Shown: positions 1,602 to 27,340, counted from the first letter of the stretch. The stretch is 35,661 bases of DNA from a virus (IMGVR_UViG_2554235304_000012), one strand, 5' to 3'. Numbers and translations are program-made. Notes: generated by a model from the letters alone, not told the origin.

Positions 1602-2702
1602 TTACTCTGTTTCTGCTATCCATTCCGGGATTTTGGCTTCAAGCTCAAGCTGCGTGGTAAAGCCACTGTTATCAATGGTGTGCTCGGCTTTTGCAATGAT
1701 CCAGTCCTGATTATCAATCTCGCTTTTAAATCCTGTTACCGTGCCATGCATTTCGGGGTAGAGTTCTGCTCGTCCACGTGCCAGCGTGATGGAAAATGAT
1801 GCGGCTCCGCGTTGTAGCTGCTGCCATTTTGCCGCCGCTGCGCGTCTTGCTGCCTGCTCGTTCTGATAAGTTTTGCGTAACACAAACACGTTGCCTTCCG
1901 CACCTTCCATATAGTCACCTTCACGGCTGCTGCTTTTCTCTTTTTTCGGTTTGCGGCGTTTCACGCTGACTTTTTTCTTTTTCCCGTAATTAAGATCAAG
2001 CCAGTAGGCGCGTACACCCGTATACGCCTCGCGGTCAGCAATGCGGAACTGATGGCGATCGCCGCTGCTGCGTGTGATGGCGAACGATGGCAACGGCTGG
2101 CCCAGTGCGTTCACGCGACCGCCTGGCATGATGAATAACAGATTACCGCTTTTTACCGTGGTGATTGCGCCCAGCATTTCCGCCATGCGCGTAAGGAAGG
2201 ACATGTCGCTTTCTTCGGTCTGGTCGGCGTGGTCGATTTCGATATCCATCAGTATTTCGCTGATTTGCGGTTTCAGACCGTACCGATGAGCGATGGCAGA
2301 TACCACGCGCTCAACGGTCACATCATGCCAGGACACCTCACGTTTAACGTTAAATTCATCCCGAAAATCTGCGCTTCTGGCTGAAACAGTCAGCCTGTCC
2401 GGCGGTCCTTCGTGAGCGATTTCATCAACAATGTAAGTGCCTTTTTCTGTCAGCGGTTCTCCTTTCCAGCCAATGAGAACCGTCAGGCGCGCGCCCCGTG
2501 GCGGTAGCTGCAACTGACCATCCGCATCATCCAGCGTGATGGTGAGCTGGTCCGCCTCAAATCCCCGGTTGTCGGTCAGTGACAGGCTCATCAGGCGCTC
2601 TGCCACGCCTGACAGCGTTTTACCCTCCGCGAGAATATCAAAATCCGGCATTTTCACGGGGTCTGTGCCCTGACTGAGCAATTGCATGGTGGTATCGGTC
2701 AT
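1602..2702 (-). CDS. D: Tail protein D (late control gene D family)
   Basis: Track ORF 1602..2834. Product matches the P2 gpD family over its length. Start is ambiguous (ATG at 2702, 2687 or upstream); 2702 chosen. Confidence 0.8.
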   Translation of the reverse strand: MTDTTMQLLSQGTDPVKMPDFDILAEGKTLSGVAERLMSLSLTDNRGFEADQLTITLDDADGQLQLPPRGARLTVLIGWKGEPLTEKGTYIVDEIAHEGPPDRLTVSARSADFRDEFNVKREVSWHDVTVERVVSAIAHRYGLKPQISEILMDIEIDHADQTEESDMSFLTRMAEMLGAITTVKSGNLLFIMPGGRVNALGQPLPSFAITRSSGDRHQFRIADREAYTGVRAYWLDLNYGKKKKVSVKRRKPKKEKSSSREGDYMEGAEGNVFVLRKTYQNEQAARRAAAAKWQQLQRGAASFSITLARGRAELYPEMHGTVTGFKSEIDNQDWIIAKAEHTIDNSGFTTQLELEAKIPEWIAETE

Positions 2703-2859
2703 CTGTTCCCTCCCTGTGCGGCATGGTCGCATGTGCGTGCGGAGGGGGTTACTGCTTTTTGTTGTCGCCGGGTCGGGAGAACGGCGCAGGGGTGAGATTA
2801 CGCGCGTGGTGGGTGATGATTGTTGCCGAATCATTTTACGGATACAAGGGGCTGAAGCT
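2703..2859. promoter_or_regulatory. Divergent intergenic region between D (-) and FI (+); presumed late promoter(s)
   Basis: 157-bp non-coding gap between two divergently oriented late genes. No Ogr-box consensus found by eye. Confidence 0.3.
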
Positions 2860-4044
2860 ATGAGTGAAACTCGTTTTCATGGTGCCCGTGTTACGGAAAA
2901 TACCGACCTGGTAACAGCGATTAATGATGTTGATTCCAGTGTTATCGGTATCGTGGCAACGGCGGATGATGCGGACGCGAAGCTGTTCCCGCTGAACAAG
3001 CCCACACTGCTGACCCGCGTCAATGACGTGCTGGGAAAATGCGGGACAACGGGGACGCTTTATCGTGCGCTTAAGGCTATCGCAGACCAGGTGAGCACAA
3101 AGGTGATCGTCGTTCGCGTGGCTGAACACAAAGAAGAAGACGGAAAGACGCAGGATCAACTGGTTATCGGTGGTTCTGAATCTGACGGCAGCTATACGGG
3201 GATGTATGCGCTGCTTGTTGCAGAGCAGGATGAAAGCATCGGATACCGTCCGCGTATTCTGGCCGCGCCGGAGCTGGACACGGAGGCGGTGACAAAATCC
3301 CTGTGCGTGATTGCGGGTAAACTGCGCGCGTTTGTGTATGCCTCATGTCATGGCTGTGACACGATGGCTGATGCGATTACCTACCGCCAGAAATTCAACG
3401 AACGTGAGGTGATGCTCTTATGGCCGGACTTCATCGCCTACAACCCGAAAAGTGGCAAAAACGAAACGTTCCCCGCGCCTGCCTATGCGTGCGGCCTTCG
3501 TGCGTACATTGACCATGAGCAGGGCTGGCACAAATCACTGTCCAACGTTCCGGTTAAAAATGTGCTGGGGATGTCGAGGCATGTGTTCTGGTCGTTGCAG
3601 GCCGAAGACAGCGATGCCAACAGCCTCAACAACAAAGAAATCACGACCATTATTCGTCGCAACGGGTTCCGCTTCTGGGGCAACCGCACACCGGAAACGA
3701 ACGCCTACATCTTTGAGGTGTATACCCGAACCGCACAGGTGCTGGCTGATTCAATTGCGGAAGCGCAGTTTGAAACCATCGACAGTCCACTGACGCCTGC
3801 GAACGTGAAGGATGTTATCAGTGCCATCAGGGCAAAACTGGATTCACTGGTGACTGCCGGGAAACTGATTGGCGCGGAGTGCTGGTATGACGTGGTGGAT
3901 AACAGCACCACGGATTTACGTCAGGGGCGTGTGCGTATTCGCTACAAATATACGCCCGTTCCGCCACTGGAAGACATGGAGCTTTACCAGACGTTTACTG
4001 ATGAATACTTTGAACCCGCATTTGCGGTGCTGGGAGGTGCCTGA
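2860..4044 (+). CDS. FI: Tail sheath protein FI
   Basis: MSETRFHGARV...SDADAKLFPLNKP...QGWHK.LSNV...IRRNGFRFWGNRT...YTPVPPLE aligns by eye with P2 FI. ATG at 2860 follows GGGGCTGAAGCT. Stop overlaps the FII start (ATGA-type coupling). Confidence 0.9.
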   Translation: MSETRFHGARVTENTDLVTAINDVDSSVIGIVATADDADAKLFPLNKPTLLTRVNDVLGKCGTTGTLYRALKAIADQVSTKVIVVRVAEHKEEDGKTQDQLVIGGSESDGSYTGMYALLVAEQDESIGYRPRILAAPELDTEAVTKSLCVIAGKLRAFVYASCHGCDTMADAITYRQKFNEREVMLLWPDFIAYNPKSGKNETFPAPAYACGLRAYIDHEQGWHKSLSNVPVKNVLGMSRHVFWSLQAEDSDANSLNNKEITTIIRRNGFRFWGNRTPETNAYIFEVYTRTAQVLADSIAEAQFETIDSPLTPANVKDVISAIRAKLDSLVTAGKLIGAECWYDVVDNSTTDLRQGRVRIRYKYTPVPPLEDMELYQTFTDEYFEPAFAVLGGA

Positions 4045-4556
4045 TGGCTGTGCCAAAACATCTTCGCTTTTTTACGCTGTTTGTGGATGGTGAAAACGAA
4101 GTGGGTAAGGTGACGTCCGTCACCCTGCCTAAGCTGACGCGCAAAACCGACAGCTACCGGGGTGGTGGCATGATGGGGGCGGTAAGTATTGATCTCGGTC
4201 TGGACGACTCCGCGCTTGATGCGAGCTTTGTCATGGGGGGCGCAGTTCGTGAGCTGTTCCTTAAGTATGGCGGCACGATTGACGGCACGCTGCTGCGTTT
4301 TGCGGGTGAATATTACACCGATGCAGAAAGCGACCTGTATGAAGTCGAAATGCGCGGACGTGTGACGGAAATTGATATGGGGGAAGCCAAACAGGGCGAA
4401 GCCACATCACACACTTACGCCATTAAAAACACCTACTACAAGCTGAGTGTTAACGATCGTCCGTTGTGGGAGATTGACCTGCTGAACTTCATTTACCGGA
4501 AGGACGGCAAGGACATTGTGCCCGATCGCATCCGTTCCGCGCTCGGGCTTGGCTGA
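4044..4556 (+). CDS. FII: Tail tube protein FII
   Basis: MAVPKHLRFFTLFVDGENEVGKVTSVTLPKLTRKTDSYRGGG resembles P2 FII (..SVTLPKLTRK..YRGAG..). About 170 aa. Confidence 0.9.
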   Translation: MAVPKHLRFFTLFVDGENEVGKVTSVTLPKLTRKTDSYRGGGMMGAVSIDLGLDDSALDASFVMGGAVRELFLKYGGTIDGTLLRFAGEYYTDAESDLYEVEMRGRVTEIDMGEAKQGEATSHTYAIKNTYYKLSVNDRPLWEIDLLNFIYRKDGKDIVPDRIRSALGLG

Positions 4557-4611
4557 TAAGTAATATGCAGGCGGCGCAGTGCGTCGCCTCTGACTGAAAA
4601 GGAGACAACTG

Positions 4612-4986
4612 ATGAAAAATATCGATACTGAAACCCGGAATAACACCGTAGCGGATGATGTGACGGCAGGTGAGGATATGGCTGTCGAACGTGGTGTAAA
4701 ACTTTCCCGGCCAATTGAGCGTGGTGCCGAAAAAATCACATATGTGGAGATCACCGGGGCTATTGAGCAGGCGGGATCCCTGCGTGGTCTGTCGCTGTCT
4801 GATGTGCTGAATCTGAAAGCGGATACCATGTTCACGCTGTTGCCTCGCGTGACCTCGCCACAACTGGATGAAGTGATGATTAAAAAAATGTCGTCACGCG
4901 ATTTTATTCAGTTGTGCGCTGTGGCTGTAAATTTTATGAGCGAGCCAGACTCTGGCGCGAAGAGCGTGCAGGAGACGGCAGCGTAA
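4612..4986 (+). CDS. E: Tail assembly chaperone E (zero-frame product)
   Basis: Position between FII and T. AAGGAG Shine-Dalgarno before the ATG at 4612. Contains an A7 slippery run at 4882-4888. Confidence 0.7.
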   Translation: MKNIDTETRNNTVADDVTAGEDMAVERGVKLSRPIERGAEKITYVEITGAIEQAGSLRGLSLSDVLNLKADTMFTLLPRVTSPQLDEVMIKKMSSRDFIQLCAVAVNFMSEPDSGAKSVQETAA

Positions 4987-5150
4987 TCACCCTGGTGTGC
5001 TTTGAGCACATCGAAGATCTGGTGGCGGATATTGCCACCATTTTTAACTGGTCGCCCGCCGAAATCTTCATGATGACTCCCGGCGAAGTGGTTAGCTGGC
5101 GTGAGCGGGCGGCACTTCGCAGCGGGAATACAGACAATGAAGACTCTTGA
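4612..5150 (+). CDS. E+E' fusion from a programmed -1 ribosomal frameshift at the A7 run 4882-4888
   Basis: The -1 frame is open from 4884 to the stop at 5150 and overlaps the start of T, as for P2 E/E' and lambda G/GT. Confidence 0.5.
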
Positions 5151-7944
5151 TATCCGGGTCGCTTTCAGCGCCGTTGACAGGCTGACCCGGCCTGCCGAAA
5201 ACGCCCGCCGCCTGATGGGGCAGTTTGGTGACTCCATCCAGCGAACGCAGGGGGCGATCAAAAATCTCGAGCGTCAGGCGCGTTCATTTGAGCGCGCCCG
5301 TGACGCTGTCAGTAAAGCGGATGCTGGCATATTGAAAGCACGACGCCAGCTTAACGCTCTTAATCAGTTACAACGCACGGGTACAGTGCTCAGCGAAAAA
5401 CAACAAAAGCTGATGCAGCAGTTAAGCACCCGGCTTGAACGCCTGAATGAATCGCGCACACGGGAAATTCAGAAAATGCGGGAACTTGGCGGAGAGCTGA
5501 AACGCCACGGCATTTCCCTGACAGGCAGCGATAACACCATCCAGCAGGCCATCAGACGCACCGAACAGTACAACAACCAGCTTGAACGCGAACGGCAGGC
5601 GCTTGCGCGTGTAACGCGGGCGCGTGAGCGGTATTCGCGCGCGCAGGAAACCGCGGGAAAACTGAAAACAGGTGGTGCGCTGGCAATTGGTGCGGCAGCG
5701 GCGGGCGGCTATGCTGCCGGGCGTTTTTTGCAGCCCGCGATCGGGTTCGGCAAAGAGATGTCCCGCGTTCAGGCGCTGACGCGAATCGACCAGAACAGCC
5801 CGCAGTTTAAGGCGCTGCGTGAGCAGGCGTTAAAACTTGGCTCTGAAACGCAGTTCACCGCAGGCGATGCCGCCAGTGGGCAGGCATTTCTTGCAATGGC
5901 TGGCTTCACACCGCAGGCCATTCAGGCTGCGCTTCCCGGAGTGCTGAGCATGGCAACGGCTGGCGGTATGGATCTCGGCGAGACGGCAGATATTGGCTCA
6001 AATATCCTGACGCAGTTCGGCCTTTCTGCTGACCAGATGGACCGGGTCGGTGACACACTCACCGCAGCGTTTACCCGTACCAACACTGACCTTCGCGCAC
6101 TGGGCGAAACCATGAAATATGCAGGTCCGGTGGCGGGTAAGCTGGGAATATCGCTGGAGCAGGCCGCAGCGATGGCTGGCGTGCTGGCGAATATGGGCAT
6201 CAGAGGGAGTGATGCCGGGACGGCAATGCGTGCCAGCCTGGCTCGTCTGGCATCACCGCCAAAGGCGGCGGCAGAAGCTCTGAAAGAGCTGGGCGTGTCC
6301 GTCTCGGATGCCGGGGGCAAAATGCGCCCGATGGAGGATGTGCTGGCCGACCTTTATAAAGCCACCCGCAAATACGGGGAAGTTGACCGGGTATCGTTCT
6401 TTAAGGACATTGCCGGAGAAGAGGCTTTCACATCGTTTATGGCGCTCGTTGATGCAGCGGGTGACGGTTCCTTACCCAAACTGAGAAAAGAACTTGAAGG
6501 CGCGCGCGGTGAGGCTGAACGCACAGCAAAGGTTATGGCCAACAACCTTGACGGCGATCTGAAATCACTCGGCAGTGCATGGGAAGGGTTGCGCATCCGC
6601 ATTGCAGATCTGATTGACGGTCCGCTGCGTTCTGTCACGCAGTGGCTCACGCGGGTGGTATCAAGGGTGACGGCGCTGGCGCAGGCCCATCCGGCACTGA
6701 CGCGCCAGCTACTGATAGCAGGCGGTGCGTTGCTGGCAATGACTGCAACGGTTGGCTCGTTGTCGCTGGCTATTGGTGTGCTTGCTGGTCCGCTGGCAAA
6801 ACTGCGTCTTGGTTTTTCTCTCCTGACCGGATCAATGAATGCTGTCAGGGTCCTGCCAGCACTATGGGGAATGGTGACGGGTTCCGTTTCTTTACTGGGA
6901 GGCGCTATCGGGGCGCTGTTCAGTCCGGTTGGTCTTATCGTGGCTGCACTTGCCGGAGCTGCCGTTCTTATCTGGAAATACTGGGATCCCATCAGGGCAT
7001 TTTTTGCCGGGGTGTTCAGCGGGATTATGGAAAGGCTGGCCCCGTTGCGCGAAACCTTTGAACGGTTTGGTCCTGTTTTTGACGCAATCGGAAGCGGGAT
7101 CAGCCAGGTGTTTAACTGGTTTAAATCGCTGCTGTCACCGATGGAGTCCAGCAAGGAAACGCTGGATAAATGTACCAGTGCTGGCGAGATATTCGGTAAC
7201 GTTCTTGGCGGTGCGTTACAACTTGTTCTGACGCCTGCAAAAATGCTACTGGATACGCTGGCGTGGATACTTGAAAAACTTGGCGTCCTTCCGGATGAAG
7301 CGGAAAGGGCGCGCAAGAAAATCGAAGACGCACAGCGTGCGGCCATTCTTCAGGACAAGGTTGCCTTGCTTCAGGGGGACCTGGCGAAAATCAATCCGCC
7401 GAAGCCTGTGGAAAATGGCAATGGCACCGGAGGTGATAAACCCAAAGACAACAAACCGCTCACAGACAGCAATACCGGTACGCTACGCAGACTCAGCAAA
7501 ATTGCTGATAACACAGGTAAGCTGGTTGATGAGACGAAAAAACGCATTGGCCCCGGCGATATTGTCTTTAAGAATCTGCCCCGCGCACTTGCTGTTCGTG
7601 GGGAGTGGCAGGAGCGGAAGATTGCGCAGGTCAGTAAGCCTGCTTCCGCAATCAACATCACACCCGTGGTCCCGACTCCTCTGCCTCCGGCGCTGGTCCC
7701 TGTTGTTGCGGCCAGCTCCCGCCCGGTGGCGGAGGCCATACGATCGCCAGTGGCATCAGTTCCTGCAACTTCCCGTAACCGGGAGCCTGTTGTCTCCGGA
7801 TTTGGCGGTGAAATTCATGTTCATCTGCATAACGTTGTTACGCAGAATCCCCGCAAACTGGCGAAACTGGTCGGTGAAATGGTCAGGGCAGAATTGGAAC
7901 GACGCGACCGTGCCGGACGTGGCAGTTTTTACGATAAAGATTGA
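5137..7944 (+). CDS. T: Tail tape-measure protein T
   Basis: About 935-aa protein with a coiled-coil-rich N-terminus and Gly/Ala-rich hydrophobic central segments typical of tape-measure proteins. Sits between E/E' and U. Start taken at ATG 5137; the track begins at GTG 5101. Confidence 0.85.
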   Translation: MKTLDIRVAFSAVDRLTRPAENARRLMGQFGDSIQRTQGAIKNLERQARSFERARDAVSKADAGILKARRQLNALNQLQRTGTVLSEKQQKLMQQLSTRLERLNESRTREIQKMRELGGELKRHGISLTGSDNTIQQAIRRTEQYNNQLERERQALARVTRARERYSRAQETAGKLKTGGALAIGAAAAGGYAAGRFLQPAIGFGKEMSRVQALTRIDQNSPQFKALREQALKLGSETQFTAGDAASGQAFLAMAGFTPQAIQAALPGVLSMATAGGMDLGETADIGSNILTQFGLSADQMDRVGDTLTAAFTRTNTDLRALGETMKYAGPVAGKLGISLEQAAAMAGVLANMGIRGSDAGTAMRASLARLASPPKAAAEALKELGVSVSDAGGKMRPMEDVLADLYKATRKYGEVDRVSFFKDIAGEEAFTSFMALVDAAGDGSLPKLRKELEGARGEAERTAKVMANNLDGDLKSLGSAWEGLRIRIADLIDGPLRSVTQWLTRVVSRVTALAQAHPALTRQLLIAGGALLAMTATVGSLSLAIGVLAGPLAKLRLGFSLLTGSMNAVRVLPALWGMVTGSVSLLGGAIGALFSPVGLIVAALAGAAVLIWKYWDPIRAFFAGVFSGIMERLAPLRETFERFGPVFDAIGSGISQVFNWFKSLLSPMESSKETLDKCTSAGEIFGNVLGGALQLVLTPAKMLLDTLAWILEKLGVLPDEAERARKKIEDAQRAAILQDKVALLQGDLAKINPPKPVENGNGTGGDKPKDNKPLTDSNTGTLRRLSKIADNTGKLVDETKKRIGPGDIVFKNLPRALAVRGEWQERKIAQVSKPASAINITPVVPTPLPPALVPVVAASSRPVAEAIRSPVASVPATSRNREPVVSGFGGEIHVHLHNVVTQNPRKLAKLVGEMVRAELERRDRAGRGSFYDKD

Positions 7945-7950
7945 GGAGTC

Positions 7951-8445
7951 ATGGCCATGATGATGATCTACGGCATGTTTGTTTTTGAGCTGCGCACATT
8001 GCCGCATCAGCAGTTACAGCAAAACAAAAGCTGGCGGCATGTGAAAAATGAACGCGTTAACCGTTCAGCAAGCTGGCAGTATATCGGCGCAGGTGATGAT
8101 CGCATCGTGCTTTCCGGCGTGCTTTATCCTGAAATTACAGGTGGCGAAGTGTCGCTTTCGTTGCTGACCACGCAGGCATATACAGGACGCCCCTGGCCTC
8201 TGATTGATGGTGTCGGGCAGATTTACGGCATGTATGTACTGACTGAAACGAATACGACCCGTTCCGAGTTTGATCGCTACGGTAAGGCGAAAAAGATAGA
8301 ATTTTCACTGACTCTTGAACGCTGTGATGAGGATTTGCGGGAGCGCCTGCAATCCTCATCGTTCAGTGATATGCTGTCCGGCTTCAAAGATAAGGTCACA
8401 TCATCCCTTAACAGCGCGGCCAGCTCCGTTAAAGGGCTGTTTTGA
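7951..8445 (+). CDS. U: Tail protein U
   Basis: ..SWRH..N.R....S..WQ.IGAGDD.I.L.GVL.PEITGG..SL..L......WPLIDG.G.I.GM.V.......SE......KIEFSL.L.R.DED aligns with P2 gpU. Confidence 0.85.
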   Translation: MAMMMIYGMFVFELRTLPHQQLQQNKSWRHVKNERVNRSASWQYIGAGDDRIVLSGVLYPEITGGEVSLSLLTTQAYTGRPWPLIDGVGQIYGMYVLTETNTTRSEFDRYGKAKKIEFSLTLERCDEDLRERLQSSSFSDMLSGFKDKVTSSLNSAASSVKGLF

Positions 8446-8453
8446 TTAACGCA

Positions 8454-8488
8454 AAACCGCTAATGGTCAGATTAGCGGTTTTTATTTT
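8454..8488 (+). terminator. Rho-independent terminator after the FI-U operon (also abuts the 3' end of the invertase gene)
   Basis: Perfect 11-bp stem AAACCGCTAAT / ATTAGCGGTTT with loop GGTCAG, followed by TTTTATTTT. Confidence 0.55.
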
Positions 8489-9071
8489 CCTGAGTCTGCC
8501 TGGTTGTTTCTTCAGCCTGTATATCGCCTACAGGGTGATAACGATAAATCGTCGATATGCCGATGTCGTAAATGATCGCCAGTTGTTTCCTGTCATGACC
8601 GTTTTTAATCAGCCTCGCTATTTGCTCGTGTTGTTCTTTTGTCAACTTCGGGCGACGTCCGCCAATGCGTCCTTGTGCGCGTGCTGCTGCCAGCCCGGCC
8701 AGTGTACGCTCTACAATTAATTCACGTTCCATTTCGGCTAAAGCCCCCATGACGTGAAAAAAGAAACGCCCCATGGGTGTTGATGTGTCAATGCTGTCCG
8801 TCAGACTACGGAAATTAACACCTTTTTCCCGCAATTCCTCAATAAGCGTGATCAGGTGTTTCATACTTCTGCCCAGTCTGTCCAGCTTCCAGACAACCAG
8901 CGTATCTCCTTCTGATAGCGTTCTGAGCAGTTTTTTCAATCCCGGTCTGGCTGATTTCGTTCCGCTGATTTTATCTTCAAAAATCAGTTCACATCCTGCG
9001 CAGTTCAGTGCATTGCGTTGTAAATCCGTGTTCTGGTCATTTGTTGACACACGAATATAGCCAATTTGCAT
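8472..9071 (-). CDS. Cin/Gin/Hin-family serine DNA invertase
   Basis: MQIGYIRVSTNDQNTDLQRNAL..GCELIFEDKISG...RPGLKKLLR.L..GDTLVVWKLDRLGRSMKHL..LIEELRE.G.NFRSLTDSIDTSTPMGRFFFHVMGALAEMERELIVERT.AGL..ARAQGRIGGRRPKLT is near-identical in pattern to P1 Cin / Mu Gin as remembered. Start set to ATG 9071 (AGAGGA Shine-Dalgarno at correct spacing). Confidence 0.9.
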   Translation of the reverse strand: MQIGYIRVSTNDQNTDLQRNALNCAGCELIFEDKISGTKSARPGLKKLLRTLSEGDTLVVWKLDRLGRSMKHLITLIEELREKGVNFRSLTDSIDTSTPMGRFFFHVMGALAEMERELIVERTLAGLAAARAQGRIGGRRPKLTKEQHEQIARLIKNGHDRKQLAIIYDIGISTIYRYHPVGDIQAEETTRQTQENKNR

Positions 9072-9125
9072 AAAAAACATCCTCTTTGTTTCGTGAAAAA
9101 TACAGAGTTGGTATAGGTAGGGATA

Positions 9126-9151
9126 AAAACGAAAACGTTGGTTTGGGGGAA
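9126..9151. repeat. hix/cix-like recombination site 1 (centre TT at 9138-9139)
   Basis: CGAAAACG-TT-GGTTTGGGGGAA. Homology to the other two copies begins exactly here. Confidence 0.5.
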
Positions 9152-9571
9152 GGCTCTGCACTGCCCGTTGGTGTGCCCGTTCCGTGGTCCTCAGCAACAC
9201 CACCAACGGGCTGGCTGAAATGTAACGGTGCAGCATTTTCTTCTGAAATGTATCCCAGACTGGCAAGGGCTTATCCCACCAATAAATTACCGGATTTACG
9301 CGGTGAATTTATCCGTGGCTGGGATGATGGGCGCGGGATTGATGCGGGACGTACCCTGCTTTCAGGGCAGGATGGTACAAGTTTTTCTCATTACGGAGGT
9401 AATTTCGACATTGGGTCTGGTCATTCAATCAATAACTATGACCAAATTGTTTCTAACCAACCAGGCTTTTCCCGTTTTTCATTTGCAGGGCCTTCACGAG
9501 GTGATGGGGTTAATTATGTAACCATTCGTCCTCGTAATATTACGTTTAATTACATCGTAAGGGCAGCATGA
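9139..9571 (+). CDS. Promoterless alternative tail-fibre C-terminal cassette 1 (silent orientation)
   Basis: The translation (within track ORF 9086..9571) shares GLGEGSALPVGVPVPW..ATPPTGWLKCNGAAFSSE.YP.LA.AYPTNKLPDLRGEFIRGWDDGRGIDA and the C-terminal PRNI.FNYIVRAA with the H C-terminus, but has a different middle region. Confidence 0.6.
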
Positions 9572-9590
9572 AAACGTTGGTTTGGGGGAA
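9565..9590. repeat. hix/cix-like recombination site 2 (centre TT at 9577-9578)
   Basis: GCATGAAAACG-TT-GGTTTGGGGGAA. Same core as site 1, in direct orientation to it. Confidence 0.5.
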
Positions 9591-10040
9591 GGCTCTGCAC
9601 TGCCCGTTGGTGTACCTGTTCCGTGGCCCTCAGCCACACCGCCAGCAGGGTGGCTGAAATGTAACGGTGCAGCATTTTCTTCTGAAATGTACCCAAAACT
9701 GGCAAAGGCCTACCCCACCAATAAATTACCGGATTTACGCGGTGAATTTATCCGTGGCTGGGATGATGGGCGCGGGGTGGATGCCGGAAGGGGCATCTTA
9801 AGCATGCAGGGGTGGTTAACAGGAAGTCATTATCATAATATTCGGTCATGGGATGCGTGGGATAACACGGTGTTGGTGCCAAATGACAAAGGAGGGGATA
9901 GTCTGTTGTCGACAGATAACGCCGTCCGGCAAGGTGCAATTAACGGTAGATTTACCAGTCAATACAGAACGGAATCCTCAGAGGGGAATGAAACCCACCC
10001 ACGCAATATTGCCTTCAATTATATTGTGAGAACCGCATAA
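9578..10040 (+). CDS. Promoterless alternative tail-fibre C-terminal cassette 2 (silent orientation)
   Basis: Track ORF 9582..10040. Shares the conserved junction sequence and C-terminal RPRNIAFNYIVR.A with H, with a distinct central receptor-binding region. Confidence 0.6.
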
Positions 10041-10651
10041 TGAATAACGCGATATTAAATGATGACCTTATTGCCGTACAGGCAGGAAACATCGTCGTTT
10101 ATAACTATGATGGTGAGACACGGGAATATATTTCCGAATCAACTGAATATCTTGCTGTGGGTGTCGGTATTCCGGCAAATTCCTGTTTAGATGCCCCGGG
10201 CGCACATAAAGCGGGCTATGCTATCCGCCGTTCGGAGAATTTAAGCTCATGGGAGTATGCGCCAGACCATCGTGGTGAAACCGTCTATAGCACTGACACG
10301 GGAAACACCGAAGAAATCACGGCGCTGGGTGACTACCCGAAAAATACAACCACTATCGCCCCGTTAACACCATACGATAAATGGGATGGTGAAAAATGGG
10401 TGACAGATACTGAGGCACAACATCGTGCTGCAGTAGAAGCGGCAGAAACCAAGCGCCAGTCACTGGCTGATGCGGCAATGGCTTCCATAAGTCTGATTCA
10501 GTTGAAGTTGCAGGCCGGGCGGAAGTTGACGCAGGCAGAAACCACCCGGCTTAATGCCGTGCTGGATTATATAGACGCGCTGAACGCAATGGATATAAAC
10601 ATGGCACCAGATATCAACTTGCCGGAAATACCACTGGCAGCAGCCAGTTGA
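10040..10651 (+). CDS. Tail fibre assembly chaperone (Tfa / Mu U / P2 G-like)
   Basis: 203 aa with ...WVTDTEAQHRAAVEAAETKRQSLADAAM..ISLIQLKLQAGRKLTQAETTRLNAVLDYIDALNAMD, typical of the Tfa C-terminal region. Start overlaps the cassette 2 stop. Convergent with H. Confidence 0.8.
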   Translation: MNNAILNDDLIAVQAGNIVVYNYDGETREYISESTEYLAVGVGIPANSCLDAPGAHKAGYAIRRSENLSSWEYAPDHRGETVYSTDTGNTEEITALGDYPKNTTTIAPLTPYDKWDGEKWVTDTEAQHRAAVEAAETKRQSLADAAMASISLIQLKLQAGRKLTQAETTRLNAVLDYIDALNAMDINMAPDINLPEIPLAAAS

Positions 10652-10657
10652 ATATAA

Positions 10658-12271
10658 CTAAGCCGCCCTCACGATATAGTTAAATGCAATATTGCGGGGG
10701 CGGGTTTCACTACCACCTGTGTTACCAATACTTCCTCGTGAATGAAGCGTTGGTGATGGAATCAAACTCCCTCCTGTATTTGTGGCATCAAGCCCCCTGC
10801 CTTGCGTATATGTTTTTTTGAAAATCGTGGCCAACTCCCATTCATCCTTTGTGTCATATCCATCGTTAGCTACAACAATATGGCGGTGTTTTTCCAACAT
10901 CCCGTTTTGAATGCTCAATAAAGCGCGTGCCGCATCAATTCCTCGCCCATCATCCCAGCCACGGATAAATTCACCGCGTAAGTCTGGTAATTTATTGGTG
11001 GGGTAAGCCCTTGCCAGTTTTGGGTACTTTTCAGAAGAAAATGCTGCGCCGTTACATTTCAGCCATCCCGTTGGCGGCGTGGCTGAGGGCCATGGAACGG
11101 GCACACCAACGGGCAGTGCAGAGCCTTCCCCCAAACCAAGGTAATCAAGAACTCCCTGAGTGCTGGTTTTACCAAGAATGGCACGTCCAACACTTGTCAA
11201 CGCGGTTAACGCGGCACGATCTGCCCCTGTAAAATATGGGAGTTTATCTGCTGATGTAGCAAGCTCTGCCAGCGCCGTCAGGGTGGCATCCTTCGGTTGC
11301 TTACCCGCAAGCGCGTTAGTCATGGTGGTCGCAAAATTCGGGTCATTGCCCAGCGCCGCAGCCAGTTCGTTCAGCGTGTTCAGTGCATCAGGTGACGAAT
11401 CTACAAGTGCGGCAATCGCGGCCATAACGAAAGCCGTGCTTGCGATCTGGGTACTATTAGTCCCCTGTGGCGCTGTTGGTGTTGTTGGCGTTCCGGTCAG
11501 TGCCGGGCTGTTTAATGGTGCTTTCTTGTTCGTTTCATCCATTACCGCCTTAACAGCTTTTGGTGTCGCTGCCAGCGTTTCAGACGTGCTGTTCGTGGCG
11601 CTACTGAGCTGAACAATTCCTTTTTGTGTAGTGGTGGCGTTCTGGGCGGTATATTTCCCGTTAGCCAGGTCATATGCAGCCTTAACCGCTTTCGGTGTTG
11701 CGGCCAGTGTTTCTGATTCACTGTTAATTGCACTGCTTAACTGAGTAAAACCTTTTACGGTCAGCGAGGCGTCCGGGTGACGTCGTGACTGTTCGTGCTC
11801 TGAGATTTTATCATCCACATATTTGCGGGTTGCCAGAACCACAGACGGGTCGATTTTCAGCGTGATGGCTTCGGTGTTCGTGACAACCAGAATCATGCGG
11901 ATAGTCTGGGTGCGTCCACTGCCTTCCTGCAACTGCGGTTTGTACGTTTCCGGGCAGTTTGCCACCGCAATGAGTACACCTTCATCATCATAAAGACCAA
12001 TCTCACGGATCCAGAATCCTCCCTCGTTTTCAGGGATGATTTGCTCCGCAATAATCTGGCTCTGATTGTTAGGGTCAACACTCAGAAGATTCAGCGGTGC
12101 AATGCGTTTCTGGTTAATCAGTTTTGTTTGTGCAGGGTCTGGTGTTGGTAACACACCATTTGCATCACCAACGGCCATTTGCGTCAGATTCAGCTTACTG
12201 CCGAGCATCGTCGCGTTAGCCAGTCGTGCCGCGCCCTGATTAGTCAGAATGGCGTAGTATTTCACTGTCAT
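10658..12271 (-). CDS. H: Tail fibre protein H (P2 H-like constant N-terminus fused to variable C-terminal segment)
   Basis: N-terminal about 380 aa align with P2 H (..ELVIPPE.GGFW.RE.GLYDD.G.LIAVAN..E.YKP...EGSGR.QT.RM.I..; SETLAATPKAVKAAYDLANGKYTAQ repeat). The C-terminal 159 aa start at the hix-like site. Confidence 0.85.
   Translation of the reverse strand: MTVKYYAILTNQGAARLANATMLGSKLNLTQMAVGDANGVLPTPDPAQTKLINQKRIAPLNLLSVDPNNQSQIIAEQIIPENEGGFWIREIGLYDDEGVLIAVANCPETYKPQLQEGSGRTQTIRMILVVTNTEAITLKIDPSVVLATRKYVDDKISEHEQSRRHPDASLTVKGFTQLSSAINSESETLAATPKAVKAAYDLANGKYTAQNATTTQKGIVQLSSATNSTSETLAATPKAVKAVMDETNKKAPLNSPALTGTPTTPTAPQGTNSTQIASTAFVMAAIAALVDSSPDALNTLNELAAALGNDPNFATTMTNALAGKQPKDATLTALAELATSADKLPYFTGADRAALTALTSVGRAILGKTSTQGVLDYLGLGEGSALPVGVPVPWPSATPPTGWLKCNGAAFSSEKYPKLARAYPTNKLPDLRGEFIRGWDDGRGIDAARALLSIQNGMLEKHRHIVVANDGYDTKDEWELATIFKKTYTQGRGLDATNTGGSLIPSPTLHSRGSIGNTGGSETRPRNIAFNYIVRAA
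11126..11151. repeat. hix/cix-like recombination site 3 inside H, inverted relative to sites 1 and 2 (centre at 11138-11139)
   Basis: Minus-strand reading is TTCTTGATTACC-TT-GGTTTGGGGGAA, very close to hixL TTCTTGAAAACC-AA-GGTTTTTGATAA as remembered. Confidence 0.55.
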
Positions 12272-12876
12272 GCGTTTACTCTCAGATTATCAATTAAATG
12301 AATGGCTGGGGCAGGGAAATAATCCCCTTCGACAATAATGGACTCCGGGGTGTAGGGATAAACCGTCAGGGCATCGCCGTGATAGCATCCCGTACCAACG
12401 AAAATCTTTCCGTTCACACTCAGGCTGATCGCCAGCCCCGTCAGATGGCGACTTACTGGTTTTGCATCCGCAATAAGGCGCTCAAGTTCCTGATACATTT
12501 CATCGGTGATGCCCTGATCAAGTACTCCGACAACAATGCGAAATGTTCCCGGTTCCTCGTTGAGTTGCCACCACTCCTTTACTTCAATCAGGTAGCCGAG
12601 AGGCTCCACGGCTCTTCGCAGTGCGCTGATGGTCCCTTTGTGTCGGTGTATCAGCCATGCATCACGAATCACCTGTCGCTTTGTCTCTTCCGGCCAGTTG
12701 CGATCCCAGCGGTCAACGGAAAATGCCCAGGCGAGATAAGGCAGCAGATGCACCGGGCAGGTGTCCGGCGACCACAGCGTGTTGAGGTCTACCGGAATGT
12801 CTGTAATGCGTGTTCCGACGGCTTCGGCACAACGCATGAAATTGCTGGCTGATGGTGGTAACAACGAATTACTCAT
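12268..12876 (-). CDS. I: Baseplate/tail protein I
   Basis: Position between J and H, P2 I-like size. Start set to ATG 12876 (MSNSLLPP...), giving a short overlap with the J stop. Confidence 0.75.
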   Translation of the reverse strand: MSNSLLPPSASNFMRCAEAVGTRITDIPVDLNTLWSPDTCPVHLLPYLAWAFSVDRWDRNWPEETKRQVIRDAWLIHRHKGTISALRRAVEPLGYLIEVKEWWQLNEEPGTFRIVVGVLDQGITDEMYQELERLIADAKPVSRHLTGLAISLSVNGKIFVGTGCYHGDALTVYPYTPESIIVEGDYFPAPAIHLIDNLRVNA

Positions 12877-13765
12877 TGCGTCCACCTTCGCTGATGGTGA
12901 ATGACTCACAGCGCGCCGCCTGTATGTCGCTGATGGCCATATTCTGTGTGGGTTCGATTATCTCCACGCGTTGCACACCGTGCACATGCAGTGCGGCAGC
13001 AATGGCGGACAACGCCACGTCCTGACCGATAAGCCCCTGCTCAGCCAGCCACTTCCTGAACGACGATTCAGCCGCGGCCAGAATAGGTTCGGATTCCGGG
13101 CCGGGGTAAAAGTACAGTTTTGCATTCAGCCGCCATGTCACGATTCTGGCGCTCTGTACGGTCAGGCGGTCGGCCACCGGGCGGGTATCCTCTGCATTCA
13201 GAACGGCGCGAACGGTATTAAGCAACGCCTCCGTTGCTGTGCCGTCGCCTTCAGTGGACAGGATGGAAACCGTCACACAGGCCGGAGACGGGCTGATGGC
13301 CCGCGCATCACGCACCAGACCGCTGGCGCTGCGTGCAAAATACTCGTATGCACCTGACGGACCAGCAACACTCAGGCCGTCATACGCCCGTTGCGCCCGC
13401 AATCTCAGCGAGGTGTCACTCTCCATCACCGCGTCGGTGGTATCCGTTGCCGGAGTGATAACCAGGCGCTTTGTGTTCATATTGCCCGCGAGGTTGTCCA
13501 GGTTTGTCCCTGAACCGTGGCTTAACATGCAGGCGCGAGCGCCCTCGTTAACCCGCTGGCGTAACAGCATTTCACGAAAAGACATGGTTTGAGCGATAAC
13601 GTTCAGGGGTTCCGATTCCAGCTCCAGCGCGGCGGAGACGGCTTCACGCTGTTCGGCAGGATAGGACGCAATCATCATGGCCTTTGTGTCAGCCAGAATT
13701 GCCTCAAAATCAGGCTCCGCGATGATGGCGGGTTCCGGTAACTGGGAAAGGTCAACAGCAGGCAT
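12869..13765 (-). CDS. J: Baseplate assembly protein J
   Basis: 298 aa. Synteny W-J-I-H and a size match with P2 J (about 302 aa). Confidence 0.85.
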   Translation of the reverse strand: MPAVDLSQLPEPAIIAEPDFEAILADTKAMMIASYPAEQREAVSAALELESEPLNVIAQTMSFREMLLRQRVNEGARACMLSHGSGTNLDNLAGNMNTKRLVITPATDTTDAVMESDTSLRLRAQRAYDGLSVAGPSGAYEYFARSASGLVRDARAISPSPACVTVSILSTEGDGTATEALLNTVRAVLNAEDTRPVADRLTVQSARIVTWRLNAKLYFYPGPESEPILAAAESSFRKWLAEQGLIGQDVALSAIAAALHVHGVQRVEIIEPTQNMAISDIQAARCESFTISEGGRNE

Positions 13766-13768
13766 GAT

Positions 13769-14119
13769 TTACTCTCTCAGCGTGATGGTTAATTCAACAT
13801 TCTGCATGGTCTGCATGACAGTGCCCGACAGCGTCACCCCGGCGCGGCCTCCTGCCTTCCAGACAACGTCGATAGCGTCCAGGGCAATGCGGGGTTCCCA
13901 TCGTGTCAGCGCAATCACGGCAGCACTCATGCATTGCAGACGCGTGGTGTTATTCATGGGTTCGTCAATCAAATCAGGCACAAGGCTGCCATATTCCCGT
14001 CGCATAACCCGGCTTGCCAGCGGGGTGGTCAGGATGTCCCTGACTGACTGTTTCAGGTGCTCCATATCGTTCAGGTTTCCCGTTCCGTCCGGGTTCATTC
14101 CTGTGTAGCGGGTTGTCAC
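13769..14119 (-). CDS. W: Baseplate protein W (gp25-like)
   Basis: 116 aa, P2 W-like size, between V and J. Confidence 0.8.
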   Translation of the reverse strand: MTTRYTGMNPDGTGNLNDMEHLKQSVRDILTTPLASRVMRREYGSLVPDLIDEPMNNTTRLQCMSAAVIALTRWEPRIALDAIDVVWKAGGRAGVTLSGTVMQTMQNVELTITLRE

Positions 14120-14697
14120 TGCGGGCCTCCTGTCGAATAGCTGCCACCTTTAACGCCACCGTGTTTATGCGTATGCACTGTGATGCCGTTTGAGGTGAAA
14201 TTGCCGCCGCTGTGCGTGATATTGCCGCTCATCTTTCCCCCTTTTGTGACGTCAAGCGTCGCCGTTCTCAGAAGGTCTGTGCATTCCACGACGGGCGTAT
14301 CCAGTGTCACGCTGACGGATGCCTGCAGGGTGGCTGTTTTCATGCCGCTGGCGCTCAGTGCGCCTGCGTCCGCGTCGTAGCGGAACACCGCGCCATCCGG
14401 CGCGCTGACCACGATTTCTTTCAGGCTTTTGCCGGGGGCCGGAATAGCATCACTCCACAGGCTGCCAATTATCATGGCGGTTTCCGGGTTGCCGCCAATG
14501 CAGGCAATTACCACCTGTTCGCCTGGTGATGGCGGCAGCCACACATTGAAGGCTCCCGCGCGCGTGGTGTTCCAGCGCAGCCAGCCTGTTTCCAGTTCGC
14601 CGCTGCGAACGCGCACGCGCCAGGACTTCTCATCAACTTCAGAGATGATCCCGGTGCGAATGATGTTGCTCAGCAGTCGCATGAGTTCTGCGCTCAC
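14116..14697 (-). CDS. V: Baseplate spike protein V
   Basis: ..IRTGII.E.D....R.RV..G...T.WL.W...RAG...W.PPS.GEQV.I....G..............DGAV..Y........SG.KTA...AS.SVTLDTP.V.CT..L.T.TL.V.KGG.M.GNI.H.GG...SNG...HTHKH align with P2 gpV. Confidence 0.85.
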   Translation of the reverse strand: MSAELMRLLSNIIRTGIISEVDEKSWRVRVRSGELETGWLRWNTTRAGAFNVWLPPSPGEQVVIACIGGNPETAMIIGSLWSDAIPAPGKSLKEIVVSAPDGAVFRYDADAGALSASGMKTATLQASVSVTLDTPVVECTDLLRTATLDVTKGGKMSGNITHSGGNFTSNGITVHTHKHGGVKGGSYSTGGPQ

Positions 14698-24056: not shown

Positions 24057-26261
24057 TTACGTGTCGAGAGAAATTTGTGTGCGCAGTTGAATAGGATTCA
24101 GAATTGTATATCGCTGGCGAATAACATTATATAAATCAAAGTCTTTTACCCTTACGCTTATTACCATCGCATATTGCATATCAGGGGCTGAAACTCCCTT
24201 AACATGGCGCGAAGAATCTCGGGCATGATACCGTATATCAAAAACTGGATCGCTTAATAATGTATCAGCACTGAACTTTTTGCTTCTGTGCAAACAAGTT
24301 TCCCACTTATGACCTTCACTCCTACACTCCCTTTCAGTCTTATACTGGCTTTTTTGACCAAAGAAATCATCTGTATCGGTATCGTCAAGGCCGAATCTTG
24401 GGCGGAAAGTTACCTGCATACCGGCCCTTGTATAGTTTACTGAATGTTCAGGATCTACTGGGGTTTGAATGCATAAAGTAGCGGTAAGCTCAAATGCTTC
24501 GTCAAAGGGAACATCAGGGAATGGGATCGGTGCCCTTAAATATTTATTTTTTGCTAATGAACCATAGTAAATTACTGTAGCAGTATCATTTGGACAATCG
24601 ATTAAAACGTTAGGATCCTCACTAAACCGTCCCCAACCGATATGTTCACGCGAATATTTTCTTGATGTTTCAGCATGATGAACAAGCAACGCTTTCAATG
24701 CAATGGTGTTCAATGGAGTTCCTGATAGAGCCGCAACTCCAGCGGCCGTTCTCAATGCTAATGGAGAGGCATAACTGGTTCCTTGAACTCCAACTATAGA
24801 ACCAAGCAGAGGGTTGTAAGTGTAAAAAGGCTCGTCGTCGCTTCCACCAAAAATAACACCATCAGGTTTAACGAATCCGGGGCTTCTGCCTGGCCCAATA
24901 CAGCTATATGGTGCCCGCCCCCATTTTTCACCGCTACGATCAGCAGCACCAATCGCTAGCGCGTTTACCATATCGGAAGGAGGTTGTATTCTCGCTGCAT
25001 CACCGTCCTCATTGCCATCATTCCCAACAGCAACAGTAAGTAATATCCCATGCTTAGCACAGATTTGGTCTAAAACAGCAGTCCATACATGAACCTCATC
25101 ATCACCAATTGGAAGATGAGGACCAATACTTAGATTAGCGAACTTATAGTCACCACTATCAAGAACGGACTGTATTTTCTTAAGGACATCAAATAAATCC
25201 CAATTGCCATTGTCACCTGATGTCGGTGAAAGAACTCTATAATGATCTACATTCATAAACGGTCTTTTAAAAGAAGGTGCATTTTCCTCGACACGTCCGA
25301 ATAAGAAAGTGGATGTCACTTCATTACCGTGCTGCAATAATAATCCGCTTGTTTCTTTGGTGTCTGGATACACGTATTCCGTAACCCAATTACTCAAGTC
25401 AGCTGTCCCCAAGCCACCATCAAAAATGGCAATACGTTCGGATTCAAGAACAGCTTTAGAATTAGGGAGCTCCGGTGTAACTATATTAGATAACTTTCTG
25501 ACAATGTTCGGCTGAGTACACCTGAGAGACGGCATCGGCCGCACAACGCGGATTAATGAAAAATCGAGTGTTTTTTTCATATCTTCAGGTCGCGCGTGTG
25601 CAACGATGAAAGTCAGCCCACCAACTTGGATTCTACTTTTGTAATCAACAGAGACATCATATTGTGCCGCATAGCTAATATAGGCTTTAACGATATCATC
25701 GTCTTCAACCCCAGCATGAAGAACCACTTCAAATTTTATCAAATCACTTTTCGCATGCTCAAAATTGCGTGCTCTCTCTTTTCCTTCAAAAAAGCTAACA
25801 CTTTCAATTTCGATCAAATCCTTTTGTACGCCCTTCGGAGCTGTAGGGGAATTTAAAATTTCCTTAAATCTTATAACGGCATCATCATCACCGCTAACAA
25901 ACAGTTGCGCCGTTACTAAGTCCTTATTCTGATCGCACTGACGTGCCGCTTTCCGTGGGCGAATGATTACCTGACGGCTGCCGACATCCCGTAAACCTGT
26001 CGCTCTAAGCAATCCTTCCGGAAAGTAGCTTTTACCCAAAAACGCTGGGTGTAAAGTTAAATTGAATACACTCTCCCCCCTTGGCTTAGCCGCATCATCC
26101 AAACTGCGAAAGCGTGAGAGTAAAGTATCAATCTCTGGGTTTAAATGCTCCCTTACTTCTTCAAGAGTATAGGGATAGCGCTTACCATCCCTTCCTTTAG
26201 GCAAAGGTTCCTTTTTTGTCAGAACATGACCGTTACCTAAAAGTAAGTTCCTTTCCATCAT
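24057..26261 (-). CDS. Subtilisin-like serine peptidase (S8 family), 734 aa; IetS-like
   Basis: Asp box IAIFDGGLG, oxyanion-hole region VAVGNDGNEDG and Ser box GTSYASPLALRTAAG in S8 order. Start overlaps the upstream ATPase stop by 4 nt. AT-rich by eye. Confidence 0.85.
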   Translation of the reverse strand: MMERNLLLGNGHVLTKKEPLPKGRDGKRYPYTLEEVREHLNPEIDTLLSRFRSLDDAAKPRGESVFNLTLHPAFLGKSYFPEGLLRATGLRDVGSRQVIIRPRKAARQCDQNKDLVTAQLFVSGDDDAVIRFKEILNSPTAPKGVQKDLIEIESVSFFEGKERARNFEHAKSDLIKFEVVLHAGVEDDDIVKAYISYAAQYDVSVDYKSRIQVGGLTFIVAHARPEDMKKTLDFSLIRVVRPMPSLRCTQPNIVRKLSNIVTPELPNSKAVLESERIAIFDGGLGTADLSNWVTEYVYPDTKETSGLLLQHGNEVTSTFLFGRVEENAPSFKRPFMNVDHYRVLSPTSGDNGNWDLFDVLKKIQSVLDSGDYKFANLSIGPHLPIGDDEVHVWTAVLDQICAKHGILLTVAVGNDGNEDGDAARIQPPSDMVNALAIGAADRSGEKWGRAPYSCIGPGRSPGFVKPDGVIFGGSDDEPFYTYNPLLGSIVGVQGTSYASPLALRTAAGVAALSGTPLNTIALKALLVHHAETSRKYSREHIGWGRFSEDPNVLIDCPNDTATVIYYGSLAKNKYLRAPIPFPDVPFDEAFELTATLCIQTPVDPEHSVNYTRAGMQVTFRPRFGLDDTDTDDFFGQKSQYKTERECRSEGHKWETCLHRSKKFSADTLLSDPVFDIRYHARDSSRHVKGVSAPDMQYAMVISVRVKDFDLYNVIRQRYTILNPIQLRTQISLDT

Positions 26262-27340
26262 TTAATCCCCCACTTTTGTAATTTATTCGCGATTGTTGGA
26301 TGTGAAACACCAACTAATTCAGCTATCTTCCTATTTGAAAAACCGTCAAAATGATATTTAATTATATTGAGATCATTATCGCTAAACTCATCCAATGAAA
26401 CCCTCTCCGTAATTACGGCTTCTATTAATGAGCTTTCAAATGGAATATTTCTAAGTACCTCATTCTTTTTGGAGAAATTCAAAATACGGTTAATGATGGC
26501 AAAGGACATGCCATCTAATAATGGTGCAAGTTTTTTAGATAGTTCAGGTTCAATATTATGATTGACTAAATATCTATCTATCAGTTCTACTGATGGCATA
26601 TTAAATTTAAGGATGTGCTCAAATCGACGCCAAACAGCCGGATCTAAGATATCAGGGTGATTAGTCGCAGCAACAAGAAGCGAGGTCGCTGGCCACTCAT
26701 CTATGGTCTGTAGGAGTACAGTAACTAAACGTTTTAATTCTCCAACGTCCCTGTCATCATCACGTCTTTTTGCAACAGCATCAAATTCATCAAGCAAAAG
26801 GACACATGGTTTCTCTTTGGCATAATCCATAACGGATTTAATATTATTACCTGTTTTTCCCAAAAGAGAACTCATTACAGATGAGAGATCCAATGTTAAA
26901 AGAGGTAAATTTAACTTTGCAGCAAGCCAATGTGCGGACATTGTTTTGCCTACGCCTGGCGGGCCAGAAAGTAAAACCGTCTTCACAGGTTCAAGACCAG
27001 CTTTGAACAAAGAAACCGCATTCTCTCTTTCGTTAACAATTGACTCCAGCTTCTTTGAGATATCCGTATTCCATACAGGTTCTTCAACAATTGCGTTGAC
27101 AGATGTTTCCTGCAAAAGGTTTCGTCTGGAGTCTCCATCCACAGGCATAGGAGCCTTACTAGATGCCCCACGTAATACTGTTCCCTCAGCAACTAACGAA
27201 GCCAGCTTAGAAGCTAAAGCCTCATCATTTTTACGGATGTTGTTAATCATCTTTCTGCATAGGAGTGTAAATGCATTTGCGTTGCCTTTGATGCCTTGCT
27301 CGATGAGTTTGAAAAGTTCATCCTCCCTCACGTTTACCAT
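26258..27340 (-). CDS. AAA+ ATPase with C-terminal helix-turn-helix, 360 aa; IetA-like
   Basis: Walker A GPPGVGKT, Walker B VLLLDEFD, sensor/SRH region LLVAATNHPDILDPAVWRRF, and a C-terminal HTH NRKIAELVGVSHPTIANKLQKWGI. Confidence 0.85.
   Translation of the reverse strand: MVNVREDELFKLIEQGIKGNANAFTLLCRKMINNIRKNDEALASKLASLVAEGTVLRGASSKAPMPVDGDSRRNLLQETSVNAIVEEPVWNTDISKKLESIVNERENAVSLFKAGLEPVKTVLLSGPPGVGKTMSAHWLAAKLNLPLLTLDLSSVMSSLLGKTGNNIKSVMDYAKEKPCVLLLDEFDAVAKRRDDDRDVGELKRLVTVLLQTIDEWPATSLLVAATNHPDILDPAVWRRFEHILKFNMPSVELIDRYLVNHNIEPELSKKLAPLLDGMSFAIINRILNFSKKNEVLRNIPFESSLIEAVITERVSLDEFSDNDLNIIKYHFDGFSNRKIAELVGVSHPTIANKLQKWGIK

Follow-up and report, generated by a model that had tools for sequence, protein, structure and literature searches.

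The window analyzed here, the whole stretch IMGVR_UViG_2554235304_000012 (35,661 nucleotides, one strand), is P88-like (P2-related) prophage DNA of enteropathogenic Escherichia coli (EPEC) strain E2348/69, and its tail-fiber gene H is, with a probability of about 93%, the target of a Pin/Min-type multiple DNA-inversion switch. The invertase encoded at positions 8472–9071 would recombine 26-bp sites at a 2-bp TT core. One site is inside H, two sites of opposite orientation head silent cassettes, and only pairs in opposite orientation are expected to invert, such that three sites would yield four DNA states and three proteins. State 1, that of the window, joins H to cassette 3. In state 2, reached by recombination of sites b and c, H is joined to cassette 2, followed by tfa, and in states 3 and 4, reached by recombination of sites a and c with or without inversion of the cassette 2–tfa–cassette 3 block, it is joined to cassette 1. 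Each cassette is predicted to form a small tip resembling that of T4 gp37, with the conserved ends building a collar and the variable center contacting the receptor, and a population of lysogens would release virions with three receptor specificities. We infer that the adjacent invertase in particular is the catalyst, that recombination depends on Fis and an enhancer, and that the tips differ in host range.

Switches of this mechanistic class have been textbook material since the work on Mu, P1, e14, and p15B in the 1980s and 1990s. The locus itself is also already known, having been found and experimentally confirmed in E2348/69 in 2014 (Goldberg et al. 2014, Genome Med 6:112, PMC4272514, Fig. 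4 and Table S1; cited here and below from portions of the report). Two overlapping inversions were reported in NC_011601.1, at 1891695–1893703 and 1892127–1893703. The cores that we mapped in NC_011601 lie at 1891695, 1892134, and 1893696, and because these positions match the reported coordinates, the locus is the same. The 215-bp repeat given there (ACCTTGGTTTGGGGGAAGGCTCTGC...; start in Table S1 ACCTTGGTTTGGGGGAAGGCTCTGCACTGCCC) is also the repeat of the window. The material was single-colony cultures of E2348/69, which were sequenced, and the cited portions describe three inverted repeats of 215 bp, four DNA variants whose coexistence was confirmed by polymerase chain reaction (PCR), and three alternative C-termini (PMC4272514). 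The large inversion was ∼90% in the forward state and the small one 49 ± 37%, and the levels of variants were calculated to need flipping rates far above that of random mutation (PMC4272514). Given these frequencies, and because both inversions are present in the window relative to the reference genome, the state of the window should be a minority one (roughly 10% × ∼50%).

Since the exact locus was published with validation, the finding adds little in itself. It serves as a positive control, in that a genuine, active switch was identified, and its coordinates placed correctly, from raw sequence alone. The first-pass annotation, made from sequence, had proposed PCR for inverted isomers, and the published equivalent detected the double inversion and the four coexisting variants (PMC4272514). 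In the cited portions, the locus is treated as 215-bp inverted repeats, without a definition of the 26-bp site or its core, the class of invertase, tfa, or the relation to Min and Pin. Likewise, in the parts of the literature examined, we did not find reported the base-level sites, the placement with Pin and Min, the link between a P2-like prophage and P1-like plasmids, an orientation-dependent tfa, or a host-range difference of the tips.

Crossover Sites and Repeats

The prediction of three hix-like sites, two of them opposite in orientation to the one in H, is borne out by sequence search. The 26-bp site TTCCCCCAAACCAAGGTAATCAAGAA has a single occurrence in the window, at 11126–11151, and none in 100 shuffles (0/100). 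Its inner 14 nt including the core (TTCCCCCAAACCAA) are found exactly three times, at 11126 (+), 9138 (−), and 9577 (−), compared with a chance expectation of 0.31 when two mismatches are permitted. The TT cores are located at 9138–9139 and 9577–9578 in one orientation and at 11138–11139 in the opposite one. Site a is proximal to the invertase gene (9126–9151, +; AAAACGAAAACG TT GGTTTGGGGGAA), site b is internal (9565–9590, +; AGCATGAAAACG TT GGTTTGGGGGAA), and site c lies within H, where it encodes VLDYLGLGE (11126–11151, −; TTCTTGATTACC TT GGTTTGGGGGAA on the coding strand).

The three sites have the composition characteristic of the Hin/Gin/Cin/Pin (Din) family, that is, two 12-bp half-sites flanking a 2-bp core that is identical in recombining partners. 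The inner half GGTTTGGGGGAA and the TT core are the same in all three. Site c has a good outer half (TTCTTGATTACC) and sites a and b have degenerate ones (...GAAAACG), like the corresponding sites in the arrays of P1-like plasmids. The stop codon of cassette 1 falls in the outer half of site b, and site b moves together with that cassette, being inverted in NC_011601. The sites resemble cix (...ACC TT GGTTTAAGAGAA, core TT), those of e14 (...ACC/ACG TT GGTTTGGGAGAA, core TT), and gix (GGTTTACAGGAA, core TC). In the window, a conserved block of ∼215 nt, with 88–92% identity among copies, comes after each of the three sites. The blocks at sites a and b form a 219-nt direct repeat (9131–9349 and 9570–9788, 92% identity), and both are inverted relative to 10908–11147 (88–92% identity). 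These sites and repeats are far above chance.

The Tail-Fiber Gene and Its Cassettes

Gene H (10658–12271, −) encodes 537 amino acids (aa) and is the last gene of the V-W-J-I-H late operon. Its constant part, of ∼377 codons (11140–12271, −), has Phage_tail_fib and Phage_fiber_2 domains and is 75% identical to H of P2 over residues 26–382, up to ...VLDYLGLGE. The homology to P2 H stops inside the peptide encoded by site c, and the alignment ends at residue 382, in agreement with the earlier placement of the site exactly where P2-like homology ends. Across all isomers of E2348/69, the constant part is 100% identical and fixed in position.

Beyond the sites are three alternative C-termini. Cassette 1 (9140–9571, +; 143 codons and a stop; collar domain, E = 2e-14) and cassette 2 (9579–10040, +; 153 codons and a stop; collar domain, E = 2.3e-15) are silent in the window. 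Cassette 3 (10658–11137, −; 159 codons and a stop) is the C-terminus fused to H in the window and resembles a structure of T4 gp37 (PDB 2XGF). When aligned, the cassettes share an invariant N-terminal block of ∼70 residues (GLGEGSALPVGVPVPW...GWDDGRG) and a conserved end (PRNI[A/T]FNYIVR[A/T]A), and their centers are unrelated. The alignment agrees with the first-pass description of two promoterless cassettes that have ∼70 junction codons and a C-terminal end in common with H but differ in their centers.

The match of cassette 3 to the receptor-binding tip of T4 gp37 (2XGF; E = 1.8e-17) spans the N-terminal collar sequence and the extreme C-terminus (NIAFNYIVRLA; NIAFNYIVR[L/A]A). In the structure of the T4 gp37 tip, both ends of the chain form the collar, and the middle of the chain supplies the distal part that binds the receptor. 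The ends of the cassettes may thus be conserved, and their centers variable, because both ends contribute to the collar and the center to receptor contact.

The first-pass annotation overlooked a single tail-fiber assembly (chaperone) gene, tfa, whose orientation depends on the state of the switch (10040–10651, +; 203 aa; Caudo_TAP, E = 1.9e-31). It is located within the invertible DNA directly after cassette 2, the stop codon of which overlaps the start of tfa by one base. Its product is 79% identical to TfaE of e14 and 82% identical to that of the single tfa of P1-like plasmids. In two of the four states (2 and 3), tfa is co-oriented with H; it is antisense in the other two, represented by the window (state 1) and the reference genome (state 4).

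Arrangements of the Locus in E2348/69

Four assemblies of E. coli O127:H6 E2348/69 match window positions 12300–35661 at 100.0% identity over the whole length of 23.4 kb. Twelve segments of the window were mapped onto relatives; each is 100% identical in E2348/69 assemblies, and their order and orientation differ. The order in the window is invertase, site a, cassette 1 (+), site b, cassette 2 (+), tfa (+), cassette 3 (−), site c, and H, which yields the 537-aa H–cassette 3 protein. In NZ_CP059840.2, the block between sites b and c is inverted (9577 × 11138) and H is joined to cassette 2, followed by tfa, in an annotated, intact coding sequence (CDS) of 531 aa. The assemblies NC_011601, LT827011, and LT903847 have the order invertase, site a, cassette 2 (+), tfa (+), cassette 3 (−), site b (inverted), cassette 1 (−), site c, and H, with an intact 521-aa CDS for H–cassette 1. 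Three of the four possible states are therefore represented among five sequences of the strain, and both fusions that were anticipated from inversion, of H to cassette 1 and to cassette 2, exist in its assemblies. The anticipated number of three variants holds for proteins, whereas the DNA isomers number four. The H–cassette 2 arrangement is also present in another IMG/VR contig with an identical invertase (L012).

At each junction, the outer half-site is unmoved and the cassette side is swapped. Exchange extends from the core no farther than +37 when cassette 2 is involved, or +46 for cassette 1 versus 3, within repeats that are ∼215 bp long. Polymorphisms of the conserved blocks always travel with their own cassette and chimeric blocks were not observed (0) in these sequences. 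Exchange confined to the interval near the core is as expected for a site-specific crossover there, and not for homologous recombination along the 215-bp repeat. Inversion between opposite sites with exchange at the core, a hallmark of the Din family, is thus documented by three isomers and by the published PCR and paired-end evidence.

One IMG/VR contig has a different structure. In IMGVR_UViG_2541047915_000010 (L016), when reverse-complemented, the cassette 3–tfa–cassette 2 block is an inverted duplication at ∼6666–9688 that is joined inside the repeat without a site. Two coexisting isomers were probably merged into a chimera during assembly.

The Invertase and Transcription Signals

The gene at 8472–9071 (−) encodes a serine DNA invertase of 199 aa. 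Its organization is that of small serine recombinases, in which a catalytic domain at the N-terminus is followed by a C-terminal helix-turn-helix (Pfam Resolvase, E = 1.5e-51; HTH_7, E = 1.4e-12), and it matches structures of Gin (PDB 4M6F and 3UJ3, E ∼1e-91), consistent with the earlier assignment of a Cin/Gin-like invertase adjacent to the cassettes. The catalytic serine is Ser9 in MQIGYIRVST, a motif that aligns with those of Gin, Cin, and Pin. The gene is directed away from the invertible DNA and its start is 66–67 bp from site a. Membership in the family of Cin was predicted correctly, but Cin is not the nearest relative: identity is 82% to Pin of e14 (PinE) and to the invertase of P88, versus 73% to Cin of P1 and to Gin of Mu. 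The product is 94% identical to the invertase of an IncY P1-like plasmid with eight sites (LR890206). On these comparisons, the enzyme is predicted to belong to the Pin/Min branch of the Din family.

A Fis-dependent recombinational enhancer is presumed, by homology, to lie at 8982–9053 (−), within the 5′ end of the invertase gene (nt 19–90). It aligns collinearly with the annotated enhancer of cin in P1 (NC_005856, 31678–31749), to which it is 79% identical; identity is 88% to pinE of e14 and 74% to gin of Mu. A Fis-like 15-mer fitting GNNYRNNWNNYRNNC is found at nt 71–85, and in all five genes compared (5/5). The region is coding sequence, so conservation is weak evidence, and for this reason the collinearity of nt 19–90 lends slight support to a mechanism with Fis and an enhancer.

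A probable bidirectional terminator separates the ends of gpU and the invertase gene (8453–8482). It is a stem-loop with a 12-pair stem leading into a T run and is bordered by A and T runs, although across the scanned region such sites were, in total, as numerous as expected by chance. A scan of 8300–12400 for sigma-70 promoters and terminators returned counts equal to those expected by chance, and no promoter was detected for the cassettes or tfa. Dyads with the shape of P2 Ogr-dependent late promoters (TGT-N12-ACA) were fewer in the window than expected by chance, with none at the expected late promoters. Two such dyads are near the switch, one between the invertase start and site a (9087–9104) and one upstream of tfa (9871–9888). 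They may be chance matches and we do not treat them as evidence.

Relation to Known Inversion Systems

In its organization, the locus appears to be a three-site member of the Pin/Min branch that operates on a P2-type H gene. As in Min-type systems, more than two sites join one constant part to several cassettes (three sites and three cassettes), and each cassette consists of a site, a conserved block, and, after a variable center, a conserved C-terminus. The p15B Min multiple-inversion system has the same design as the arrays of P1-like plasmids and has six sites; it was reportedly described by Iida in 1990 and by Sandmeier, Iida, and Arber in 1991/1992. The first-pass annotation was right that the system is multi-site but likened it to P1 Cin/Min; Cin is a two-site, two-state system, and the precedent is Min of p15B and of P1-like plasmids.

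The P1-like IncY plasmids and the window have in common more than two sites, cassettes of ∼140–165 codons headed by a site and conserved block, a single central tfa, and a Pin-like invertase whose gene points away from the array. In both the window and the arrays, the stop codon of a cassette is overlapped by the internal site that comes after it. Three classes of site are also common to both: that of the fiber gene (TTCTT[A/G]ATTACC), an invertase-proximal class (AAGAC[T/G]AAAACG), and an internal class ([A/G]GCAT[A/G]AAAACG). The class adjoining the invertase (AAGAC[G/T]AAAACG TT ...) is also present in relatives of the prophage. The plasmids differ in having seven to eight sites that act on the S gene of P1, whereas three sites act on a P2-type H gene in the chromosomal P88-like prophage.

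Close relatives among E. coli prophages include versions with two cassettes (L005) and with four cassettes (L003 and L004, the latter with four sites). Across relatives of the same design, the number of sites varies from two to eight and the site sequence is kept at the head of every cassette. The two-cassette relative (NZ_CP129345.1, 98% identical) lacks cassette 1 and one site (compare 9140–9578), leaving a simple two-state segment. This form could be ancestral, or it could stem from a deletion between a and b, two sites in direct repeat.

Among characterized enzymes, Pin of the e14 P segment is the closest to the invertase (82%). The sites of e14 are nearly identical to those of the window (... 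TT GGTTTGGGAGAA), its stfE cassette belongs to the same family as the cassettes here (57–59% identical, with the same conserved ends), and in both, the invertase gene adjoins the segment and is transcribed away from it. Unlike the window, e14 of E. coli K-12 is a defective element with two sites, two states, and two different tfa genes. Gin of Mu and Cin of P1 likewise have 26-bp sites with a 2-bp core and a constant fiber N-terminus with alternative C-termini, and their enhancers lie in the 5′ end of the recombinase gene, where one is presumed here. In Mu, gix is 67 bp away from the start of gin, matching the 66–67 bp between site a and the invertase start. The Mu and P1 systems differ in that they are two-state, with long variable parts that each have their own tfa (U and U′), the core of Mu is TC, and cin of P1 is transcribed toward the segment, with cixL overlapping its 3′ end.

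Phage P88 (Xuanwuvirus, Peduoviridae) is like the window in that the FI-FII-E-T-U block is convergent with V-W-J-I-H and an invertase gene is between them. It is unlike the window in its classical two-cassette, two-state segment with long fiber ends and two tfa genes. The label "shufflon", used in the first-pass annotation, is not appropriate in its strict sense, which refers to the tyrosine recombinase Rci, 19-bp sfx repeats, and pilV of R64/IncI1. The recombinase here is of the serine type, the sites are 26 bp and resemble cix and those of Pin, and the target is a phage tail fiber; the term fits only in the loose usage found in the cited portions of the earlier report (PMC4272514).

P2 itself was said to have no such switch, and this is correct, yet its H gene retains a gix-like half-site at the same codon. 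In P2 (NC_001895), codons ∼376–384 of H, which are homologous to site c, read GTTATCGAATATC TC GGTTTACAGGAA, equal to the core and inner half-site of gix in Mu. The stretch resembles the remnant of a crossover site and coincides with the point at which fiber homology breaks.

Alternative Explanations

Several points weigh against the interpretation of a Pin/Min-type switch driven by the adjacent invertase. Sites a and b have degenerate outer halves, in which AAAACG alone is consensus-like. The enhancer is presumed from homology within coding sequence. Candidates for the acting enzyme include others, as E2348/69 has two more Din-type invertible loci, and enzymes of the Pin family can act in trans, as PinQ does on e14 (PMC12529663). 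Last, tfa opposes H in the states of the window and the reference genome, so H–cassette 3 and H–cassette 1 fibers may not receive a chaperone.

The repeats are long (∼215 bp) and 88–92% identical, and they are described as plain inverted repeats in the cited portions of the earlier report (PMC4272514), as would suit RecA-dependent homologous recombination between them, with the invertase and sites irrelevant or dead. The confinement of all exchanges in E2348/69 to the first 37–46 bp from the core, with no chimeric blocks, makes this highly improbable. Homologous recombination is also at odds with variants at 10–50% within single-colony cultures, reflecting rates far above random mutation (PMC4272514), with an intact invertase gene that has its catalytic serine, and with a site sequence that is kept at every cassette head in arrays of up to eight sites. 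That the arrangements are instead artefacts of assembling a repeat-rich region is hardly credible. The inverted duplication in contig L016, with its site-less join, does have the appearance of such a chimera, but one state is common to three independent complete-genome assemblies, each of two further sequences (another assembly and the window) has a distinct, self-consistent state with clean junctions at the sites, and PCR validation of all four variants has been published (PMC4272514).

A further alternative accepts that the switch is real and differs on why it is maintained, proposing a selected role in the lysogen in which, for example, a fiber variant expressed by the prophage masks a receptor against other phages. 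The cassettes are of the same family as stfE of e14 and Tfa is 79% identical to TfaE, and StfE2 of e14 is reported to mask a receptor after an inversion driven by PinQ (PMC12529663). Benefit to the host was also raised as speculation in the cited portions of the earlier report (PMC4272514). Nevertheless, the prophage looks complete, H is in a late operon, and the cassettes have no detected promoter, and we consider a role of this kind to be quite unlikely. The flipping of tfa raises the prospect that inversion controls more than receptor specificity. Cassettes 1 and 3 might be independent of the chaperone, virions might be defective in fibers, or tfa might have a second promoter at the invertase-side border; separately, cross-reacting Din loci or a fiber variant acting in the lysogen might be involved. 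Such extensions are tentative and, on balance, unlikely. If true, fiber-defective virions in the states where tfa is antisense would add an on/off layer to the Pin/Min-type switch, and a second promoter at the fixed invertase-side border would drive tfa whenever it is so oriented.

Prophage Context

The prophage is apparently complete. Its genes for capsid, terminase, tail, lysis, and replication are all 100% conserved in E2348/69. The block of sheath, tube, tape measure, and gpU genes (2686–8445, +) is convergent with the baseplate and fiber operon (10658–14697, −), with the invertase gene in between. This layout differs from that of P2, in which both blocks of tail genes have the same direction, and it is common to phage P88 and all close relatives. 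We considered whether the FI-FII-E-T-U block, which runs against V-W-J-I-H, reflects a large inversion by the invertase relative to P2, and rejected the idea because P88 and all relatives have the same layout. The sole other site-like match in the window, at 4372 with two mismatches, is at chance level and also counts against it.

A 229-aa open reading frame (ORF) at 742–1431 (−) had no match in Pfam or PADLOC at E ≤ 0.001, and a 319-aa ORF at 28035–28994 (−) had none in PADLOC at the same threshold. Between the portal gene and the replication gene, the prophage carries as cargo an IetA/IetS anti-phage defense pair (24057–27340, −), composed of an AAA ATPase of 360 aa and an S8 peptidase of 734 aa (PADLOC, E = 3.6e-89 and 6.6e-41, respectively).

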